Origin: Gemmatimonadales bacterium | GTDB lineage: Bacteria; Gemmatimonadota; Gemmatimonadetes; Gemmatimonadales; JACORV01 | NCBI GenBank assembly: GCA_030697825.1 | Contig: JAUYOW010000135.1 | Coordinates: 8,556 to 72,555 of the forward strand | DNA length: 64,000 nt | Reading direction: 5' to 3' | Part shown: positions 18,485 to 43,389 of the stretch, in pieces | Numbering within the stretch: the first letter of the stretch is position 1 | Layout: the number at the start of each line of letters is the position of its first letter | Notes under the pieces: generated by a model | Database searches by the model: none | What the model was told of the DNA's origin: nothing | Seen by the model: the letters and a program-made list of their open reading frames with translations, nothing else | Made by a program: the position numbers and the translations under genes

Positions 18485-20542
18485 TCAAGAGATGCGCGCG
18501 CTCCCGAGCAGGGCGATGGCGGCGTCTCCGGGGATGGGCTCCGAGAAGAGGAATCCCTGGACGTGGGCGCACCCGATCGCGCGGAGCAGCGCGAGCTGCT
18601 CCTCGGTCTCGACTCCTTCCGCGATCACGTCGATGCCGAGGTTGCGCGCCAGCGTCACGATCGTCCGGATGATCTCCGAGTTCTCGCCGCGCAGGCCCAG
18701 GTTGCTCACGAACGAGCGGTCGATCTTGAGAGTGTCGATCTGGAAGCGGTGGAGGTAGCTGAGGGAGGAGTACCCGGTGCCGAAGTCGTCCATGTGGAGC
18801 TGCACGTTGAGCGCGCGGAGGCGAGCCAGCATCGACACCGCCGACTCGGCGTTCTCGACGATGACGCTCTCCGTGATCTCGAGCTGGAGCGTGTGCGCGT
18901 CGAGACCGGTCTCCTTCAGGATGAGCGCGATCTGGTCTACCAAGTCCGGCTGGAGCAGCTGCTTGGCGGAGAGGTTGACGCTCATGGCGAGGGGATGCTC
19001 AGGGCCGGCCAGCTGCTGCCAGACCTTGATCTGGCGGCATGCCTCGCGGAGCACCCACAGCCCCAGGGGGACTATCATACCGGTCTGCTCCGCCACCGGG
19101 ATGAACGAGGCCGGTTGCACCAGGCCCCGCTGCGGGTGCTGCCAGCGCGCCAGCGCCTCGAAACCGACGATCTTGCCCGACCTCATCGAGACTATCGGCT
19201 GGTAGTGGAGGAGGAACTCGTCGCGCTCGAGCGCTCGCCGGAGGTCCGTCTCCAGCTGCAGCATTGCCACGGCGTGCTTATGCATCTCAACCTGGAAGAC
19301 CTCGTGGCGCGCCCCGCCCTGCTCCTTGGCGCGGTACATCGCCAGGTCGGCGTCGCGCAGGAAGTCCTCGGGCCGGTCGTAGCCCGCCACCGAGAGCGCG
19401 ATCCCGATACTGGCGCTCCCGAACACCTCCTGCGTGCCCAGGACGAACGGCTGCTTCAGCTCGTTCTCGATACGGTCGGCCACGCGGATGGCGTCGCCGA
19501 CGTCGTGGATGTCGTCGAGGAAGAGGGCGAACTCGTCGCCGCCCAGGCGGGCCGCGGTGTCGCCGGGCCGGACGCAACGCTCGAGGCGACGCGCGATCGC
19601 CGTCAACAACTGGTCTCCCGTGGAGTAGCCGAGGCTCTCGTTGACCAGCTTGAATCGGTCGATGTCGAGCACCACTACCGCGTAGGCGTAATCCTCCCGC
19701 CGTTTCCCGCGGCCGATGGACCGCGCCACCAGGTCGCGGAACAGCGCGCGATTGGCCAGCCCGGTCAGCTCGTCACGGATCGCAAGGTGGAGGAGCTGCT
19801 CCTCGGCCGCCTTGCGCTCGGTGATATCGCGGTAGATGCCGTAGACGGCCATCCGCCCCATGGGACCCACGATGGGAGTGCCGAGGATCGAGACGTCCAC
19901 CAGGCGGCCGTCCTTGCGCTGCCGCACCGTCTCGTAGCTGACGGTCTCGCCTTCGGTCACTCTGCGGGTCAGCGACGCGGCCTCCTCGGCGAGATGCGCC
20001 GGCGCGATCAGGTCGTTGATCCGCCGGCCCACGGCCTCCTCCGGCGTGTACCCGAACATCCGCGTGAAGTAGGCGTTCACCCGCTGGACGACGTCGTCGT
20101 TGTCGAGGAGGACGATCGCCTCGGGCGCGTTCTCCACCAGTTGGTCGAGGTGCGCCCGCTCCCGCCCCAGCTCCGCCGCGACGCGCCGGTGGTCGCTGAT
20201 CACCCGCTGCACCACCAGCACCGACGCGAGGACGAGCACGCTGACAGGGAGCGACCACCAGCTCGGCGCCTCGCTCAGGGTGTGCGCAAGCAGGAGGAGG
20301 ACGAGCGCGCCCAGGATCCCGATTCGCCAGTCGCGAAGCCGCAATACCAGCAGCACGCACCGCAAAAGGGCGACCAGCCCGATTGCCACGGCTACCAATT
20401 GGAGGACGTTCAAGGGAGGCGGGCGCGCCCGGGTGGACGCACCCGCCGCGGCAGCGCGGAGGACGACCGTCTCGACCTTCGACCGCGAAGTTCGCTCATT
20501 GTCCGGTCGGCTCGTGGGGGGTGCGCCGGTATGCGGGCGCAT
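18485..20542 (-). CDS. Membrane-anchored PAS-GGDEF-EAL protein (c-di-GMP turnover); start uncertain (20542 chosen, track start 20662)
   Basis: TM helices, PAS-like region, GGDEF motif (RLGGDEFALF) and EAL domain (...FEALARW..., ...LEITES..., DDFGTGYSSLSYL). Confidence 0.85.
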   Translation of the reverse strand: MRPHTGAPPTSRPDNERTSRSKVETVVLRAAAAGASTRARPPPLNVLQLVAVAIGLVALLRCVLLVLRLRDWRIGILGALVLLLLAHTLSEAPSWWSLPVSVLVLASVLVVQRVISDHRRVAAELGRERAHLDQLVENAPEAIVLLDNDDVVQRVNAYFTRMFGYTPEEAVGRRINDLIAPAHLAEEAASLTRRVTEGETVSYETVRQRKDGRLVDVSILGTPIVGPMGRMAVYGIYRDITERKAAEEQLLHLAIRDELTGLANRALFRDLVARSIGRGKRREDYAYAVVVLDIDRFKLVNESLGYSTGDQLLTAIARRLERCVRPGDTAARLGGDEFALFLDDIHDVGDAIRVADRIENELKQPFVLGTQEVFGSASIGIALSVAGYDRPEDFLRDADLAMYRAKEQGGARHEVFQVEMHKHAVAMLQLETDLRRALERDEFLLHYQPIVSMRSGKIVGFEALARWQHPQRGLVQPASFIPVAEQTGMIVPLGLWVLREACRQIKVWQQLAGPEHPLAMSVNLSAKQLLQPDLVDQIALILKETGLDAHTLQLEITESVIVENAESAVSMLARLRALNVQLHMDDFGTGYSSLSYLHRFQIDTLKIDRSFVSNLGLRGENSEIIRTIVTLARNLGIDVIAEGVETEEQLALLRAIGCAHVQGFLFSEPIPGDAAIALLGSARIS

Positions 20543-22421: not shown

Positions 22422-22482
22422 TGAGCGACCATGTCGCCGCCGGCCCGAACCACAGCGCTCGCACGTGTTAGGCTACCCCATT

Positions 22483-22725
22483 TCACGCGAGGTCAGCCAG
22501 ACGGACACCGCGGCCGCGCCGCAGCGCCTCTCGTGCCCCAGCGACCTGCTCGAGGAACTCGGGATGGTGTTCCAAGCGGTACTCGAACCAGGCCTCCTCG
22601 GTGTCGAATCCGATCAGCACGCCAGCCGGGCGCCCGTGCTTCGTAATCACGATCTCCTCTCCTGCCGCCTGTCGCAGATACCGAGAGAAATCGTCCTTAA
22701 CTCGCGCCAGCGCCACCTTCTTCAT
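22483..22725 (-). CDS. Type II antitoxin, Phd/YefM family
   Basis: 80 aa. MKKVALARVKDDFSRYLRQAAGEEIVITKHGRPAGVLIGFD... is the classic Phd/YefM N-terminus. It lies downstream of, and overlaps by 29 nt, a RelE/ParE-like ORF. Confidence 0.8.
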   Translation of the reverse strand: MKKVALARVKDDFSRYLRQAAGEEIVITKHGRPAGVLIGFDTEEAWFEYRLEHHPEFLEQVAGAREALRRGRGVRLADLA

Positions 22726-23014
22726 CGGGCGTTCCCTCCTCTTTTAGCCAGGTCTCCGCCTGCGCCTTCGTCACGATGGCGAGAACCTCGACCCGCTTCT
22801 CCCCGACGTCGTAAAACACTCGTATATCCCCGACGCGCAATCGAAACTGCGGCTGCGCCAGTCCGCGGAGGCGCTTGATGCGACTCTTGCTAACGCGCGT
22901 GGGCTGGTGGGACAAGTGCCGGTCCATGGCATCCCGCACGACCGCCCGCAGGTTGGCCTTGAGCGCTCGGTACTGAGCCACCGCAGTTGGGGCGAGGATG
23001 ACCTCGTACGCCAT
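22697..23014 (-). CDS. Type II toxin, RelE/ParE superfamily (toxin-first gene order)
   Basis: 105 aa. ...RIKRLRGLAQPQFRLRVGDIRVFYDVGEKRVEVLAIVTK... matches the RelE/ParE core (YRLRVGDYRVIY...V.I..I..R). Confidence 0.75.
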   Translation of the reverse strand: MAYEVILAPTAVAQYRALKANLRAVVRDAMDRHLSHQPTRVSKSRIKRLRGLAQPQFRLRVGDIRVFYDVGEKRVEVLAIVTKAQAETWLKEEGTPDEEGGAGAS

Positions 23015-23073
23015 TCTGGCCAGAAGATAGCTACACTAGGATGGCCGGGCAAGGGGAGCCGGCGAACGGGGCA

Positions 23074-23299
23074 GCCTAACGAACAGGGTTTAGCTGCGGG
23101 CCGGCGCGTTGGCCGCGCTGGCCCCGCGTTACGCCGCCACAGCTCGCGAACCCAACATGCCAGCGCGGCCAGCCGGCCTCGTCAGCTACAACCCGAGCCT
23201 GTGCGAAAACACCGTTCTGAGCACCCCTAAGTTGTTGATTTACAACGCTGCCACTGCTGCCAAAGTGGCGTTTTCACACAGGCTCACCCGTAGTTAGGC
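23074..23299 (-). other. attC-like recombination site (R'' GCCTAAC ... R' GTTAGGC) interrupted by a 91-bp palindromic insertion
   Basis: GCCTAAC starts 1 nt after the ParE stop and GTTAGGC ends the site. Inner stem arms 23159-23194 / 23086-23122 are homologous to the site at 42364-42489. Confidence 0.5.
23195..23285. mobile_element. MITE-like 91-bp element with 19-bp terminal inverted repeats, flanked by a 4-bp direct repeat ACCC
   Basis: TIRs gagcctgtgcgaaaacacc (23195-213) and ggcgttttcacacaggctc (23267-285), 17/19 complementary. ACCC at 23191-94 and 23286-89. The interior is AT-richer than the surroundings. Confidence 0.4.
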
Positions 23300-23300
23300 G

Positions 23301-23594
23301 TTACAGGCGACTCTGCCACTCGCGCGGATCCCGACGCGCATGCAGAACTGCTAGAATCGCAATGCGCCCCGGTGTCGGCACGTAGTAGACGGAGAACGGA
23401 AAGCGGCGCAACCTTGCGCGGCGTGCATCTGGGGCGACCAGTTGATAGCCCTGAGGCATGCGTTGAATGAGGCCGAAGCAGACATCGACAGCACGCAAGA
23501 ACTCGGTGCCTAGCCCCGCAGCGCGGGTTTCGTACCACTCGGCAGCGAGCAGCATGTCCGTTTCGGCCGCTGCCCGGATCAGAAGGGTGGGCAT
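23301..23594 (-). CDS. Type II toxin, ParE/RelE family
   Basis: 97 aa. ...AAEWYETRAAGLGTEFLRAVD...RRARLRRFPFSVYYV...RIAILAVLHARRDPREW is a typical ParE-like toxin. Confidence 0.8.
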   Translation of the reverse strand: MPTLLIRAAAETDMLLAAEWYETRAAGLGTEFLRAVDVCFGLIQRMPQGYQLVAPDARRARLRRFPFSVYYVPTPGRIAILAVLHARRDPREWQSRL

Positions 23595-23810
23595 TTACCT
23601 GATGAGCTTGTACAGCCGCTCGCGTACCTGTTCCCAAGGAATGCCTGCTTCAGGGTGAGCGCGGTAGTCTGCCAGTCGCCGCTCGAGCTCTTGGAGATGC
23701 CACTCGGGGACTGGGATTTGCTCGTCGTCGATGCTATCCCAGAGATCCTCCACGAGCTGGAGGCGCTCCGGGACAGACAGGTGGCTGAAATCCATGAGTT
23801 TGGGTGCCAT
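23595..23810 (-). CDS. Addiction-module antitoxin (putative addiction module component family)
   Basis: 71 aa. LSVPERLQLVEDLWDSI...WHLQELERRLADYRAHPEAGIPWEQVRERL is the signature of this small antitoxin family. Its stop abuts the ParE start. Confidence 0.75.
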   Translation of the reverse strand: MAPKLMDFSHLSVPERLQLVEDLWDSIDDEQIPVPEWHLQELERRLADYRAHPEAGIPWEQVRERLYKLIR

Positions 23811-24085
23811 GGGCTCAATCTGGTGGGCGGACTGCCGGCTGGCAAGTGACGCAGATCCGAGACCGCATGGCCGGGACCATGTCCGTTCGGGTGGCTTCCT
23901 CTGTGACGCCTAACTTGTAGTTTACCCTACTTGTCTTCCAGTCCGGGGCGACGTTCGCGTGATAGCTCGGCCTACGCCGTGCTTATGCGACAAACCGGCG
24001 TATAACTCGGCCCGCAACAATACGACGCCCCGCCCCAACCCGCCAGCCGGCCGGCCAGCGGCGACGCACTAGAACCAGGACCGGG

Positions 24086-39118: not shown

Positions 39119-40228
39119 ATGCCCGCATGGCATCTCCTCGGCGGCAAGTCCGAGTTGCTGGCGCGCGTCCCGTTCACGGTCAAGCTGGAGCGCCACCAGA
39201 TCGCGGTCTTCTTCCACGAGGAACGGTTCCGGGCGATCGGCAACAGCTGCAACCACCAGGGCGGACCGCTGTGCGAGGGGCAGGTTCGCGGCGAGTTCGT
39301 GATGTGCCCGTGGCACGGCTGGGAGTACAGCGTCATCACCGGCAAGGGACCCGAGGGCTACGACGAGGAGCAGGTGCCGGTCTTCGAGGTAGAGGACCGA
39401 GAGGACGGCGTCTACGTCGCCACGCCGCCCGTGATGCCCCGCAAGCTCGTCAAGCACAAGCCGTCACACCTCCTCGAGGGGCACCAAAAGCCGGCCGGCG
39501 CGCCGGCCCGGGTACTGGGCATCTCCACCACCGCGATGGACGACGCCAATCCGCGTTACTCCACATCGGACTCGCTGCTCGGCCACGCCCTGGACCTGGC
39601 CCGCGAGCGGGGCGCCGAGACGAAGCTGGTGCGCTTGAACGAGCTGAAGTTCCGTCCCTGCGAGGGGAACTACTCGAAAGCGGCGCGCGCCTGTACCTGG
39701 CCGTGCGCGATCACCGAGCGCGACCCCGATGACCAGCTCACCGTAGTGTACGAGGGCCTGGTGCACTGGGCCGACGTGGTGCTCATCGCGACGCCGATCC
39801 GGTGGGGCAGCGCCTCGTCGCTGTACTTCAAGATGATCGAGCGCATGAACTGCATCCAGAACCAGATCACCATCCACAACAACGTCCTGATCGGGAACAA
39901 GGTCGCGTCGTTCATCATCACCGGCGGGCAGGACAACATCCAGGCGGTGGCGGGCGGGATGATGACCTTCTGGTCGGAGCTGGGCTTCGTCTTCCCGCCC
40001 TTCCCATTCATCGCCCATTCGCGCGGATGGGACGCCGAGGACATGCAGACCAACGTGCGGCAGGTGAAGGCGAGCGAAGCGCTCCGCACCGCCGCGCGTG
40101 AGCTGGCGGGGCGCGCGATCGACTTCTGGGGGATCGTGGACCGCCACCGCGCAGAGATGGGCAAGCCGATGGAGCGCGCGGGCCGGAAAGCACAATCGTT
40201 GGTGGCGAGAGAGGCGGCGACGACATGA
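39119..40228 (+). CDS. Fusion protein: N-terminal Rieske [2Fe-2S] domain plus C-terminal flavodoxin-like NADPH-dependent FMN reductase / iron-sulfur flavoprotein domain
   Basis: ATG 39119 is preceded by AAGGAAGGAG. Rieske motifs CNHQGGPL and CPWHGWEY. The C-terminal half (VLGISTT...LIATPIRWGSASSLYFKMIERM...FIITGGQDN) looks like an NADPH-FMN reductase fold. Confidence 0.7.
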   Translation: MPAWHLLGGKSELLARVPFTVKLERHQIAVFFHEERFRAIGNSCNHQGGPLCEGQVRGEFVMCPWHGWEYSVITGKGPEGYDEEQVPVFEVEDREDGVYVATPPVMPRKLVKHKPSHLLEGHQKPAGAPARVLGISTTAMDDANPRYSTSDSLLGHALDLARERGAETKLVRLNELKFRPCEGNYSKAARACTWPCAITERDPDDQLTVVYEGLVHWADVVLIATPIRWGSASSLYFKMIERMNCIQNQITIHNNVLIGNKVASFIITGGQDNIQAVAGGMMTFWSELGFVFPPFPFIAHSRGWDAEDMQTNVRQVKASEALRTAARELAGRAIDFWGIVDRHRAEMGKPMERAGRKAQSLVAREAATT

Positions 40229-40662
40229 CCGAGCGCATGCGGGTAGCGAAGGCGTACGAGAAGGCGCTTTTCGCGGGGCGAATGGACGAGGTAGCGGGCT
40301 ACCTCACCGACGACGTCGTGTACTGGGTCGCGGGCGCACCGCCGATCGGCGGCGAGTGGCGTGGCAAGGAGGCGGTGCTGCGCGCCTTCGACCAGCGCGA
40401 ACCCGGACTGGGTGCGGCCGACTGGGGGTATGAGGACCTCGAGCGCTCGTGGTACGATGCCGAGGACCGGGTGATCGTCGAGATCCGCGAGCGCAGCTGG
40501 CTCAAGAGCGCGCCGTCCGACGTGATGGACCAGCGGACCTGCGCCGCGATCCGGTTCCGCGGAGAAAAGATCTGCGAAATGCGCGACTACACCGACTCGC
40601 ACTTGTACGAGGAGTTTCTGAAGCGGCACCGCGGTCAGCTGCCGAAGTTCGCGGGGCGCTGA
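40225..40662 (+). CDS. SnoaL-like / NTF2-fold protein (ketosteroid-isomerase-like)
   Basis: 145 aa. ...AKAYEKALFAGRMDEVAGYLTDDVVYWVAG...RGKEAV...F... is the pattern of SnoaL-like domains. ATGA overlap with the upstream gene. Confidence 0.65.
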   Translation: MTERMRVAKAYEKALFAGRMDEVAGYLTDDVVYWVAGAPPIGGEWRGKEAVLRAFDQREPGLGAADWGYEDLERSWYDAEDRVIVEIRERSWLKSAPSDVMDQRTCAAIRFRGEKICEMRDYTDSHLYEEFLKRHRGQLPKFAGR

Positions 40663-40783
40663 GAGCGGCCGTTGGCCGATGGCCATTGGCCGTTCGGCGA
40701 GCATGAGGGCGTGCCGCATCGCGACGTAGTAGTCCGCCAGGGCGCGCCTCACGCTCGACCACCGATGGCGCCGCACGCGCGAC

Positions 40784-40809
40784 GCGCCTATGCCTAAGCG
40801 GATAGGCGC
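40784..40809 (+). terminator. 8-bp hairpin (GCGCCTAT / ATAGGCGC, 10-nt loop GCCTAAGCGG) downstream of the SnoaL-like gene
   Basis: Read directly. There is no U-tract, so terminator function is speculative. Confidence 0.25.
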
Positions 40810-40931
40810 CGGGTGGGCGGGCCGGCTTGCCCGGTTGGTGGCGTGAGCGCACCTTGAACGGCGTCGCTGCGACCGGCCCGGGGGAACGGTGGCGCCGGCG
40901 CCGGCCGCTGCATATCATCGCGAGTCTTGCA

Positions 40932-41027
40932 GGCTAACTCGGCTACGGGGCCGAGCTATCACGCGAGCTTCGCAGCGGTTGTGGTTTTGGACGTGAAGCC
41001 CAATTGCTAGTAAAGACCTGGTTAGCC
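40932..41027 (+). other. attC- or attI-like site preceding cassette 1 (GGCTAAC ... GTTAGCC)
   Basis: The terminal 7-mers are exact reverse complements, and the complementarity extends outward (TGCAGGCTAAC / GTTAGCCAGGCA). There is an internal hairpin CTCGGC-TACGGG-GCCGAG. The inner arms are otherwise poorly paired. Confidence 0.35.
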
Positions 41028-41031
41028 AGGC

Positions 41032-41466
41032 ATGGCGACAGACCACGCACTGAAACTGGGGAAGCTTGTTGGCAACCTCCAATCCCTGGAGGCGGTTCTT
41101 CGCGTCTATCTGCTCAAGATTGGGGAGAAACCGAGACCGGCGAAGCAACAGTCGCATTCGTATTGGGATCTCGTCGTCGGCGACGTAATCAACGCTGACG
41201 AATTCTCGAACTACGACACCCTCGGCACTCTCGTCAGGAAATTCAACGACGACGTCCGCCCGCGCGACACCTCACTATGCGTCGACCCCGCAGTGGTAGA
41301 CGTTCGCGATCTGCTGGCTCACGGACGTGTCGCTGGCTCAGCCGACGACACGGCGACCTTGATGATCGTGAAGTTCGACAAACCGTCCGCCGGGACAGTG
41401 ACAGTGGTGGCGAGCGCCCTGAATGGACGACGCCTGGTTTGCCGCGAACGTCGCATTATCTTATGA
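41032..41466 (+). CDS. Cassette 1 ORF, hypothetical protein (144 aa as listed; 3' end probably frameshifted)
   Basis: Track ORF. The last ~15 residues (NGRRLVCRERRIIL) look out-of-frame, whereas the +1 frame from 41423 reads MDDAWFAANVALSYEQLIRVGKALERYAA and stops at the TAA inside the GCCTAAC box. Confidence 0.5.
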   Translation: MATDHALKLGKLVGNLQSLEAVLRVYLLKIGEKPRPAKQQSHSYWDLVVGDVINADEFSNYDTLGTLVRKFNDDVRPRDTSLCVDPAVVDVRDLLAHGRVAGSADDTATLMIVKFDKPSAGTVTVVASALNGRRLVCRERRIIL

Positions 41467-41506
41467 GCAACTCATCAGGGTCGGAAAGGCACTCGAGCGG
41501 TATGCG

Positions 41507-41604
41507 GCCTAACTTCCGGACGAACCCGATGGCGGAGTCGATTCCCGTTTCGCCGTGGCAACGCGCGTGCCGGCTCCACCCACGGGTTATCCGGCGCGTT
41601 AGGC
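41507..41604 (+). other. attC-like recombination site, 98 nt, canonical architecture
   Basis: GCCTAAC-TT-CCGGA-CG-AACCCG ...(variable)... CGGGTT-A-TCCGG-CGC-GTTAGGC. It has R and L box pairing, an unpaired spacer and extrahelical bases. It starts 41 nt after the ORF stop. Confidence 0.7.
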
Positions 41605-41631
41605 GGCCCGCTAGAGATCGAGGACTGTCCG

Positions 41632-42330
41632 TTGGACGCGATTGACTGGAGAAGGATTGTGCGCTACTTGCCTTCATCGTCCCAATGGCGTAACTGGAGC
41701 CTTCCCAGCCGATTGACGGCGATAGGCGCGGCGATTTCAGTCGTTTCTCTCATAGTAGCTGTTGTGCTTGCATTGCTCGACCAAGCTGCGGATCGGAGCC
41801 GCGCTCGCTTGATGGAGGAGGAAGCCGAGCTACGAAGTCGGCTCGAGTCCGCTGCCCTATCATCAGTTCAGGGCAAGCAGGACGAGCAGTTCCTTGCGCT
41901 CCTCTCGGCGCTCGCGGTGCTTATTGGTGAGCAATCTTCTCTCTCTAGCCGAGTGGCCGATACGGTCACTTTTTCCGGCACAGGCGTTGGCGAGTTCCCG
42001 ACCGGTCTCGCAGTTCTGTCGCGAGTCTTTCAGCAGGATTACCCAGGTGTAGCGAACGACGAGTTGCTTGTCGAGATCGTTGTCGGGTTACCTTCTCCTT
42101 CCGGGCAGAACGACGCACGCCCTGGGGTGCTCGTACAGATTCACCAGCAGGGCTTAAGCTACGAGACGAACGTCTTTCGCGTTGGTGAGCTCGAGCCCCA
42201 TGTTCTCATGCGGGCCCTCGCTGCGGCTGGATTACGCGTGTCCTCAGAGGTCGCGGCCGAAGGCGGCGTCTGGGTCACGATATTCGACCCCGCAAACGGG
42301 AAATCTGCAAGACTTCGAGCGCCGTCTTGA
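41632..42330 (+). CDS. Cassette 2 ORF, single-pass membrane protein of unknown function (start TTG 41632 or GTG 41659)
   Basis: 232 aa. One TM (LTAIGAAISVVSLIVAVVLALL), a charged coiled-coil-like stretch, then a ~130-aa C-terminal domain. No family recognised. Confidence 0.55.
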   Translation: MDAIDWRRIVRYLPSSSQWRNWSLPSRLTAIGAAISVVSLIVAVVLALLDQAADRSRARLMEEEAELRSRLESAALSSVQGKQDEQFLALLSALAVLIGEQSSLSSRVADTVTFSGTGVGEFPTGLAVLSRVFQQDYPGVANDELLVEIVVGLPSPSGQNDARPGVLVQIHQQGLSYETNVFRVGELEPHVLMRALAAAGLRVSSEVAAEGGVWVTIFDPANGKSARLRAPS

Positions 42331-42363
42331 ATCGATGCCCTGAGGCCAGTCTCCGGGTGGGCC

Positions 42364-42489
42364 GCCTAGTTAGGATTTGAACCTGCGGAGCCGGCTGGCC
42401 GCGCCGGCGACCAGGCGGTAAGTGGTTCAGGAACCGCGCACCGGCGCGGCCACGACGCCGGCTCACAGGTTAAAACCACTCTGTTAGGC
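42364..42489 (+). other. attC-like recombination site, 126 nt (degenerate R'' GCCTAGT, R' GTTAGGC)
   Basis: Long imperfect palindrome with arms at 42373-42408 and 42441-42477. It is homologous, with compensatory changes, to the site at 23074-23299 on the other strand. Confidence 0.6.
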
Positions 42490-42523
42490 AGCAGCGGTTA
42501 CTCACACGCACCTAGGCGGCACC

Positions 42524-42940
42524 ATGACCGCGTGGCTCATTCTCCTAATCATCTTCGTTGCCGGGTGTATCGGTGGCATTACCAATGCGGCGATTGCTGG
42601 CGAGTTGCGCTTGCCGTACACCGATCCCGAAGCGCGGGTCTACAGGCCTGGCTGGGTCGGGAACGTGCTCATAGGGGGCATAGCGGCTCTCGTCTTCTGG
42701 GGCCTATACGGCCCGATGGCCGCGGCAGTTCTCATGGGCCCTATCGATCCGGCGGCTCCGCAGCCTCTACTTCGAGTCTCTGAGCTGTTCGCGGCATTGC
42801 TCACGGGAATCGGCGGCGGTAGACTACTTACTGCGGAGGTCGAACGGCGCGTGTTCGATAGAGAGAAGAAGGCCCTCACCGATACGAAGGACGCTCTTGC
42901 AACTGCTGTTAAGAGCCTTGCTGAGGAGGTAAGACAATGA
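42524..42940 (+). CDS. Cassette 3 ORF A: small 3-TM glycine-zipper-rich membrane protein with a C-terminal amphipathic helix
   Basis: 138 aa. TM segments WLILLIIFVAGCIGGITNAAIAG, WVGNVLIGGIAALVFWGLYGPMAAAVLMG, LFAALLTGIGGGRLL. ATGA overlap with ORF B. Confidence 0.6.
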   Translation: MTAWLILLIIFVAGCIGGITNAAIAGELRLPYTDPEARVYRPGWVGNVLIGGIAALVFWGLYGPMAAAVLMGPIDPAAPQPLLRVSELFAALLTGIGGGRLLTAEVERRVFDREKKALTDTKDALATAVKSLAEEVRQ

Positions 42941-43389
42941 CGGACGGCACTCCAAAGGCACCCGATATCGATGCAATTGAGCTTATCGAAACGCTCGCAA
43001 CCCAGATCCCGAGCTCCAGTTCCTTTACCTCGGCAAGCCTAGCCCAACAGATCCTGGAGCAAACCCGTCGGCTCCACGCCTTCCGCAGTGCCCTCGTGGT
43101 TGGCCGCGAGGCGGGCGCCAAGGCCCACGAGATGGTCGAGGCGCAGGTACAGGAGGCGGAGGTCGGGAAGACCTACCAAGGCAAGGTGAAGACGACGACG
43201 GCCTTCGGGGCGTTCGTCGAGATCTTGCCCGGGGTGGAGGGACTGGTCCACATCTCGGAGCTCCAGCACGGCCGCACCGAGAAGACCGAAGACGTCGTGA
43301 AGAAGGGCGACTCGGTCACGGTCAAGGTGCTGGAGGTCGACGAGCACGGGAAGATGAGGCTCTCGCGCAAGGCGGTGCTCGAGAAGTAG
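42937..43389 (+). CDS. Cassette 3 ORF B: chimeric protein, novel ~55-aa N-terminus fused to a PNPase-like linker plus S1 RNA-binding domain
   Basis: The C-terminal AEVGKTYQGKVKTTTAFGAFVEILPGVEGLVHISEL...GDSVTVKVLEVDEHGKMRLSRKA is an S1 domain closest in style to the PNPase C-terminus. Codon usage switches at about nt 43100. Confidence 0.6.
   Translation: MTDGTPKAPDIDAIELIETLATQIPSSSSFTSASLAQQILEQTRRLHAFRSALVVGREAGAKAHEMVEAQVQEAEVGKTYQGKVKTTTAFGAFVEILPGVEGLVHISELQHGRTEKTEDVVKKGDSVTVKVLEVDEHGKMRLSRKAVLEK

Follow-up and report, generated by a model that had tools for sequence, protein, structure and literature searches.

CALINs are described as groups of two or more attC sites that share a strand, lie within 4 kb of each other and have no integron integrase in their vicinity (PMC4889954; Neron et al. 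2022, PMC9024848), and the insertion of cassettes at genomic attG sites has been reported together with SALINs (Loot et al., bioRxiv 10.1101/2022.09.11.507474). We found an array of the former kind in the 64-kb window, by which we mean the whole stretch of DNA analysed, positions 8556-72555 of contig C132. Its two attC sites (41507-41604 and 42364-42489) are both on the + strand, 760 nt apart, and matches to the integrase profile TIGR02249 occur on other contigs only, in agreement with the CALIN definition; the arrangement of a complete integron, with intI adjoining attI and the array, was not found here. We consider it highly probable that 41507-41604 is the attC recombination site of integron gene cassette 1 (41022-41598). 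As such, it is an ordinary example of a well-known type of site, located in a soil Gemmatimonadota-type genome, and the CALIN-type array around it is probably still accessible to the integrase of this genome. The array comprises the following features, in which a slash marks a junction:

40792..41029, + strand: leader repeat, found again at about 91% identity at C159:1683-1924 and in part on C271, C48, C88 and C318
41012..41027, + strand: attI-like core AAAGACCTGG/TTAGCC, with the cassette junction at G41021/T41022
41022..41598, + strand: cassette 1 (577 bp, TTAGCC...G), with homologous cassettes at G/TTAGRC and DNA homology to locus L023
41032..41512, + strand: gene of cassette 1, frameshifted, from a 159-aa family without known function
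41507..41604, + strand: attC of cassette 1, from sequence, fold and model alignment
41598..41599, + strand: predicted crossover G/TT in R'
41599..42483, + strand: cassette 2 (885 bp) with ORF 41632-42330
42364..42489, + strand: second attC, from its scores under both covariance models (R1 and R2, see below), 80-88% identical to attCs of the C31, C269 and C313 arrays
42484..43389, + strand: third unit, without attC, with ORFs 42524-42940 and 42937-43389

The 98-nt site 41507-41604 is built from short blocks, which pair from the outside inwards:

41507-41513, + strand: R'', GCCTAAC
41514-41515, + strand: spacer, TT
41516-41520, + strand: outer L stem, CCGGA
41521-41522, + strand: unpaired CG
41523-41528, + strand: inner L stem, AACCCG
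41529, + strand: unpaired A
41530-41582, + strand: variable centre, which opens with TGG and closes with CCA around 47 nt
41583-41588, + strand: 3' arm of the inner L stem, CGGGTT
41589, + strand: A
41590-41594, + strand: 3' arm of the outer L stem, TCCGG
41595-41597, + strand: spacer, CGC
41598-41604, + strand: R', GTTAGGC

R'' fits the motif RYYYAAC, R' fits GTTRRRY, and the 7-bp complementarity between them is perfect. The first-pass annotation had read this layout from the sequence, and every element that it listed is in place: the outer 7-mers are exact reverse complements of each other, the spacer between R box and stem is unpaired (TT versus CGC) and shorter than in attC_aadA1, and a 6-bp stem (AACCCG/CGGGTT) leads into a variable, partly paired centre. 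The pair CCGGA/TCCGG, which had been called L-box-like, is likewise present, but upon alignment to attC_aadA1 the L box corresponds to the two inner stems together, including the unpaired base that separates them. The unequal bases CG versus A, previously suspected to be extrahelical, keep the register seen in attC_aadA1. When the sites are aligned by the models, the unpaired C15/G16 of the site (opposite a single A) and its A23 share columns with C16/A23 of aadA1 and with a C and an A of catB3. Read on the bottom strand, the site runs CCA-[T]-CGGGTT-[C]-GTCCGG-AA-GTTAGGC and attC_aadA1 runs GCG-[T]-CGGCTT-[G]-AAC-GAATT-GTTAGAC, so that in both sites two unpaired bases are located 6 bp apart on the R''/L'' side. 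The heptamer GTTAGGC occurs nine times in the 64-kb window, compared to 2.8 expected occurrences.

As single-stranded DNA, each of the two strands folds into the layered hairpin (R box, TT-CGC spacer, CCGGA-TCCGG, AACCCG-CGGGTT), with -25.7 kcal/mol for the top strand (z -2.4) and -27.3 kcal/mol for the bottom strand (z -2.6). The bottom strand is better by 1.6 kcal/mol because it gains a T.G pair in the outer stem, where the top strand has a C.A mismatch. In our comparison set, the bottom strand folds more stably than the top in 28 of 40 attCs, and the longest ORFs are co-oriented with the attC sites in 24 of 29 cassettes. The energy of the hairpin alone is only modestly unusual, and the case for an attC rests on context and on an architecture that is far outside chance expectation.

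To score this architecture we used two surrogate covariance models, R1 and R2, rather than the models of IntegronFinder or HattCI, and excluded the site 41507-41604 from both. R1 was built from eight attCs on other contigs of the genome, one of which lies 600 bp downstream of intI on contig C6. R2 was built from 38 attCs, none of them from the window, which came from the genome's own C6 and C31 arrays, two metagenome arrays, the array of Gemmatirosa and aadA1. When the whole genome (3.37 Mb, 333 contigs) was searched for RYYYAAC...GTTRRRY pairs, a coherent attC family emerged, with the consensus GCCTAAC-NA-GCGCTT-G-MAGYTG-N-CGR...YCG-CARCTK-AAGCGC-N5-GTTAGGC. Covariation supports the structure on which the models are based: 93.6% of cells are paired and both sides change in 14 of the 22 pairs, values that none of 500 shuffles reached.

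In the window, R1 run without filters assigned 34.2 bits (E 1.1e-7) to the + strand of 41507-41604 and 13.1 bits to its reverse strand, while R2 assigned 37.7 bits (E 4.7e-7) to the + strand and reported nothing at E<1 on the reverse. The second attC, 42364-42489, scored 58.2 bits with R1 and 38.4 bits with R2, and elsewhere in the 64-kb window R2 found at E<1 only this second attC (including its reverse strand) and a third attC at 23074-23199. On class 1 plasmid integrons, R1 recovered attC_aadA1 (35.2 bits), attC_catB3 (23.2 bits) and attC_aac(6')-Ib (16.4 bits), each directly 3' of its gene and on the strand of that gene, and on a plasmid of Gemmatirosa kalamazoonensis it found 21 sites in a row after intI, at 29-53 bits. 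These class 1 and Gemmatirosa matches anchor the model and its orientation to the conventional top strand, and R1 is more than the model of a local repeat. The controls held out from R2 scored 39.7 bits (catB3), 25.3 bits (aac(6')-Ib) and 17.0 bits (blaOXA-1), each at its correct position and strand. Folding of both strands and scoring with an attC covariance model had been suggested by the first-pass annotation as checks, with a poor attC score counting against its reading; the site scores as well as the class 1 attC controls.

These results also bear on the question whether 41507-41604 might instead be an ordinary hairpin, such as an intrinsic terminator, a REP-like repeat or the end of a MITE, that carries GCCTAAC/GTTAGGC ends by chance. 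Its position just after the end of a gene and its modest folding z-score of about -2.5 would suit such a hairpin. On the other hand, the model scores are strand-specific and equal to those of validated attCs, the unpaired bases occupy the attC register, and the cassette boundaries of homologues, described below, match the site. No T-run was found 3' of the hairpin, where the sequence continues with GGCCCGCTAGAG, and a terminator scan called no site there, which upholds the earlier distinction from a terminator. Identical hairpins downstream of core genes, which had been named as evidence to the contrary, did not turn up: a blastn-short search of the genome returned no copy of the hairpin except itself, which is thus not a dispersed repeat of the REP or MITE type. 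A search of Rfam, which has no attC family, gave no match in either gathering or E-value mode. We therefore attach hardly any probability to an ordinary hairpin, and treat the site as an attC in what follows.

The cassette-1 protein has 87 homologues, nearly all of 159 aa, which match only the first 90% of the listed 144-aa ORF. Relative to these homologues, the gene carries a 1-nt insertion near 41421-41423 (region 41420-41425), which shifts the frame and lets the listed ORF stop at 41466. After the insertion, the +1 frame runs on to ...ERYAA and a TAA at 41510-41512, inside the R'' box GCCTAAC. The first-pass annotation had placed the site downstream of the cassette-1 ORF; the site does lie at the 3' end of the cassette, but the reading frame of the family ends within R'' and not at 41466. 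An independent Logan contig that covers part of the array starts at 41442 and thus does not reach the insertion. Cassette 1 may be decaying, given that its gene is frameshifted.

Among seven independent contexts of cassette-1 homologues, five show a start 3-4 nt after GTTAGGC or GTTAGAC, and in four the gene stops with a TAA inside GCCTAAC, GTCTAAC or ATCTAAC; several homologues belong to arrays with further attCs. The cassette in the window begins in the same manner, with G41021/TTAGCC-AGGC-ATG, that is, with 4 nt before the ATG. At the DNA level, similarity to L023, the closest of the homologues (78% amino-acid identity), extends from GTTAG to GCCTAAC and ends there, and the interiors of the two attCs are unrelated. 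The left boundary of cassette 1 is thus shown by the GTTAGRC starts of its homologues together with the limits of homology to L023. A comparison of cassette boundaries in related genomes had also been proposed earlier, and its outcome agrees with the attC reading, as homologous cassettes start after GTTAGRC and end in RYYYAAC. On the right side, where cassette 2 is without detectable homologues, we infer the crossover at G41598/T41599 from the attC family and from exact G/TT junctions at 41021/41022 and in a pair of contigs, C159 and C318, that is described below.

For the cassette-2 ORF, 41632-42330, no homologues were detected, which makes it ORFan cargo. The third unit ends without a third attC after ORF 42937-43389 under either R1 or R2. 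Instead, the last ~295 nt of this ORF (43095-43389) are 86% identical to the 3' end of a core gene at C137 33426-33720 and 82-87% identical to the loci in all relatives, and they encode an S1 domain (Pfam PF00575, 70 bits). It looks as if a pnp-like 3' end had been grafted onto cassette DNA at the place where the third attC would be. Apart from this grafted S1 domain, the cassette proteins had no match in Pfam and PADLOC searches.

The whole array forms a 2.9-kb low-GC island of two complete cassettes and a truncated third, inserted between a SnoaL-like gene and an MFS transporter gene. Related genomes are syntenic with this one up to the stop codon of the SnoaL-like gene (~40660) and again from the 3' end of the MFS gene (43535) onwards. 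The intervening stretch measures 2.87 kb here, but only 68 bp, without attC, in the related genome G012. In G003 it holds a ~1-kb nitroreductase-like gene (L015, G003:C17), a remnant of which is found in G001 (L016, G001:C147), so that this place is a variable spot in the genus, independently of cassettes. A binning or assembly chimera, in which the attC would stem from the integron of another organism, has to be considered in a 333-contig draft with an estimated contamination of 2.2%, the more so as the GC content of the island is about 10 points below its flanks (0.57-0.61 over 41000-43100 versus 0.69-0.72). Low GC is, however, usual for cassettes. The island is internal to a 93-kb contig, and other contigs of the genome carry close copies of the second attC and of the leader. 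Moreover, the independent Logan contig matches 41442-43613 at 99.95% identity and joins the first attC, cassettes 2 and 3 and the end of the MFS gene, which links the island to the MFS gene and speaks against a chimeric assembly. We thus regard a chimeric origin as very unlikely and the attC as part of this genome.

The window contains a second integrase-less attC cluster at 22467-23914 on the minus strand, which carries small toxin-antitoxin-like ORFs and whose attC 23074-23199 scored 18.8 bits with R1 and 31.9 bits with R2. Many attCs hold, inside their L'' box, an element of ~90 nt with terminal inverted repeats (GAGCCTGTGCGAAAACACC...GGTGTTTTCGCACAGGCTC), which was located at the following positions:

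Window 23074-23299: ~90-nt element in an attC
C218:65342-65531: ~90-nt element in an attC
C277:110-304: ~90-nt element in an attC
C31:4965 and 9965: ~90-nt element in attCs
C313:9564: ~90-nt element in an attC
C314:2087: ~90-nt element in an attC
C269:5418: ~90-nt element in an attC
C143:33581: ~90-nt element in an attC

The flanks of this element resemble 4-bp duplications (CGCT, CGTT, GGGT), and it is a MITE targeting attC sites.

At its head, the array of cassette 1 carries an attI-like core within the end of the leader repeat. The motif AAGACCTRGTTRRSC occurs only twice in the genome, namely at this array head and on C6, 178 nt after the intI stop codon and just before the first cassette. 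A looser class of the motif, AAASACCWRGTTRRSC, adds only C159 and the end of C318, and the core type can be written as AAA[G/C]ACC[T/A][G/A]G/TT. In G016, which represents another genus of the family, TAAGACCTAG/TTAGGC is located 172 nt after intI and before two attCs; with the exception of this genome, the core motif with one mismatch occurred at background level in the relatives. When the leader was compared to the spacer between intI and attI on C6, 26 nt aligned, with a score no better than the best of 200 shuffles. As the similarity of leader and C6 beyond the core is at chance level, the link between leader and attI rests on the 16-nt core and its position.

Further evidence on this core comes from contigs C159 and C318, which share the leader end ...AAACACCAAG. 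While C159 goes straight on to TTGGGCAGCACACACC..., the leader end on C318 is followed by a 638-bp toxin-antitoxin cassette (TTAGCC...attC...G) and then by 122 nt identical to C159. A cassette is thus absent from C159:1850-2037 and present in C318:17850-18638, exactly at G/TT. This difference may be either a population polymorphism or one between two loci. The C159/C318 junction makes the core a credible attI-type site, and the pair of contigs argues for an IntI that would be active in the population on leader-headed arrays without an integrase of their own.

The leader is a modular intergenic repeat, and its copies on C159, C271, C48 (two copies), C88 and C318 are all located upstream of a gene on the same strand. 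The leader also holds an inverted pair of GCCGAGYTAKC motifs (40933-40960), and this motif recurs at 23961, where the other attC cluster in the window has its far end. The leader may supply a promoter or integrase-binding repeats. Since partial copies precede ordinary genes on C48 and C271, the leader could in itself be a dispersed repeat that carries a promoter.

A TIGR02249 profile search detected neither an integrase nor an integrase remnant on the 93-kb contig, and the genes upstream of the array (egtB, egtD, a Rieske/flavodoxin fusion and the SnoaL-like gene) include no tyrosine recombinase. Among named sequences, EgtB has its closest matches in MAGs of Gemmatimonadetes and Gemmatimonadales, at 64-72% identity, and the taxon of the genome was deduced from these and from the match of IntI to Gemmatirosa; an RsgA-like protein gave only ~50%-identical matches, to Bacillota and others, in a collection without close kin. 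A 368-aa ORF at 39670-40776 on the minus strand was considered as a candidate integrase and rejected as an antisense artefact. The genome does encode an intact IntI on contig C6, which reaches 412 bits against TIGR02249 (cut-off 265) and is 57% identical to the plasmid IntI of Gemmatirosa kalamazoonensis; IntI proteins above this cut-off are present in 18 of the 27 genomes of the family. Two incomplete integrase genes were seen elsewhere in the assembly: a fragment at C278:17791-18171, which lies mid-contig and comprises only the C-terminal 127 residues, is followed by CAATTACTAG/TTAGGC, a cassette and an attC (18860-18959), and an N-terminal piece is located at a contig end (C243:3479-3853). 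The unannotated Gemmatirosa array (L036, plasmid NZ_CP007129, 844836-869771) consists of intI and at least 21 attCs of the same family on the same strand and continues up to the limit of the stretch analysed, and intI is co-oriented with the cassettes in this plasmid, on C6 and in G016.

With no integrase on the contig of the array, any recombination would take place in trans through the intact IntI of C6. In such an event, the bottom strand of 41507-41604, when single-stranded, would fold into an imperfect hairpin with a 7-bp R box, a spacer, a two-part L stem and a variable tip, and would carry the two unpaired bases on the R''/L'' side of the L stem. The integron integrase would recognise the shape of this hairpin and not its sequence, strand exchange would occur at the G/TT of R' (G41598/T41599), and the cassette could be excised or inserted as a circle.

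Alternatively, the site could be an attC by descent that is now an inert relic, in an array left behind as a fossil after loss of the integrase or after a one-off insertion. The frameshift in the cassette-1 gene, the lack of intI on the contig, a third unit that has lost its attC and is fused to the pnp-like tail, and the short central spacer of the site would all fit a relic, and neither a variant arrangement nor a presence/absence form of the window's own cassettes was seen in the assembly. Yet the R box has no mismatch, the two unpaired bases and the two L stems have stayed in register, and the genome retains an intact IntI. The array has also kept an attI-like core identical in type to the one linked to intI, and a cassette insertion is polymorphic at a sister locus that is headed by the same leader. 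An inert relic is therefore unlikely in our view, and we favour an attC that remains open to recombination in trans.

A more far-reaching possibility, which we put forward tentatively and hold to be slightly less probable than not, is that the array is no decayed integron but one of several integrase-less docking platforms in this genome, and that a single IntI serves several attI sites in trans. The array in the window and those on C159 and C318 all open with the ~240-bp leader and the attI-type core at its end. If it is true that one integrase serves several attI platforms, many CALINs would be active parts of integrons and not debris. Our results add one attC and one small integrase-less array in the Gemmatimonadota, where integrons are common but little described. 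For annotation, the cassette boundaries are now fixed, and the cassette-1 gene can be assigned as a frameshifted member of a widespread cassette-borne 159-aa family.

Compared to the attCs of class 1 integrons, represented by attC_aadA1 and attC_catB3, the site shares an R'' of the form RYYYAAC, an R' of the form GTTRRRY, a two-part L stem, a variable tip and unpaired bases that correspond to top-strand positions 16 and 23 and are separated by 6 bp, and it reaches comparable scores under the same models. As in class 1 cassettes, the cassette gene has its stop codon in or near R''. The site differs from attC_aadA1 in length (98 nt versus 60 nt) and in its central spacer, which measures 2 and 3 nt on its two sides, compared to 5 and 6 nt for attC_aadA1 and to 2 and 5 nt for the main attC family of this genome; the shorter spacer is due to an extension of the outer L stem to 5-6 bp. 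The first unpaired base of the top strand is a G in 37 of the 38 sites of the lineage alignment and a C in aadA1, whereas the site in question has CG opposite an A. The top-strand G of the lineage corresponds to a C on the bottom strand, and the top-strand C of aadA1 to the classical extrahelical G on the bottom.

The integrons of Gemmatimonadota, on C6 and on the Gemmatirosa plasmid NZ_CP007129, have the same attC family and the same R boxes as the array in the window, but their arrays follow an integrase gene, which that of the window does not. Relative to the C6 and Gemmatirosa arrays, the L stem CCGGA/AACCCG of the site represents a rarer subtype. A strict search pattern for this subtype revealed one more copy on metagenome contigs, L034, which scores 49.9 bits with R2, reads AGCTAAC-TA-CCGGA-TG-AACCCG...CGGGTT-A-TCCGG-GGC-GTTAGCG, differs in its tip and stands after an unrelated cassette of two genes.

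The array resembles CALINs in its two attCs on one strand less than 4 kb apart, with no integrase nearby, and in its cassettes of unknown function without database homologues, and differs from them by the attI-like core and leader retained at its head, which the CALIN definition does not consider (PMC4889954; PMC9024848). With attG insertions and SALINs (10.1101/2022.09.11.507474) it has in common a small integrase-less chromosomal cluster, the absence of flanking transposable elements and an expression that would depend on a nearby promoter. The left junction of the array, in contrast, is no arbitrary GWT site but a 16-nt core common to the intI-linked attI sites of C6 and G016. Small CALINs might alternatively arise by the attG route of Loot et al., but the core shared with intI-linked attI sites at the head of this array is not predicted by that route.
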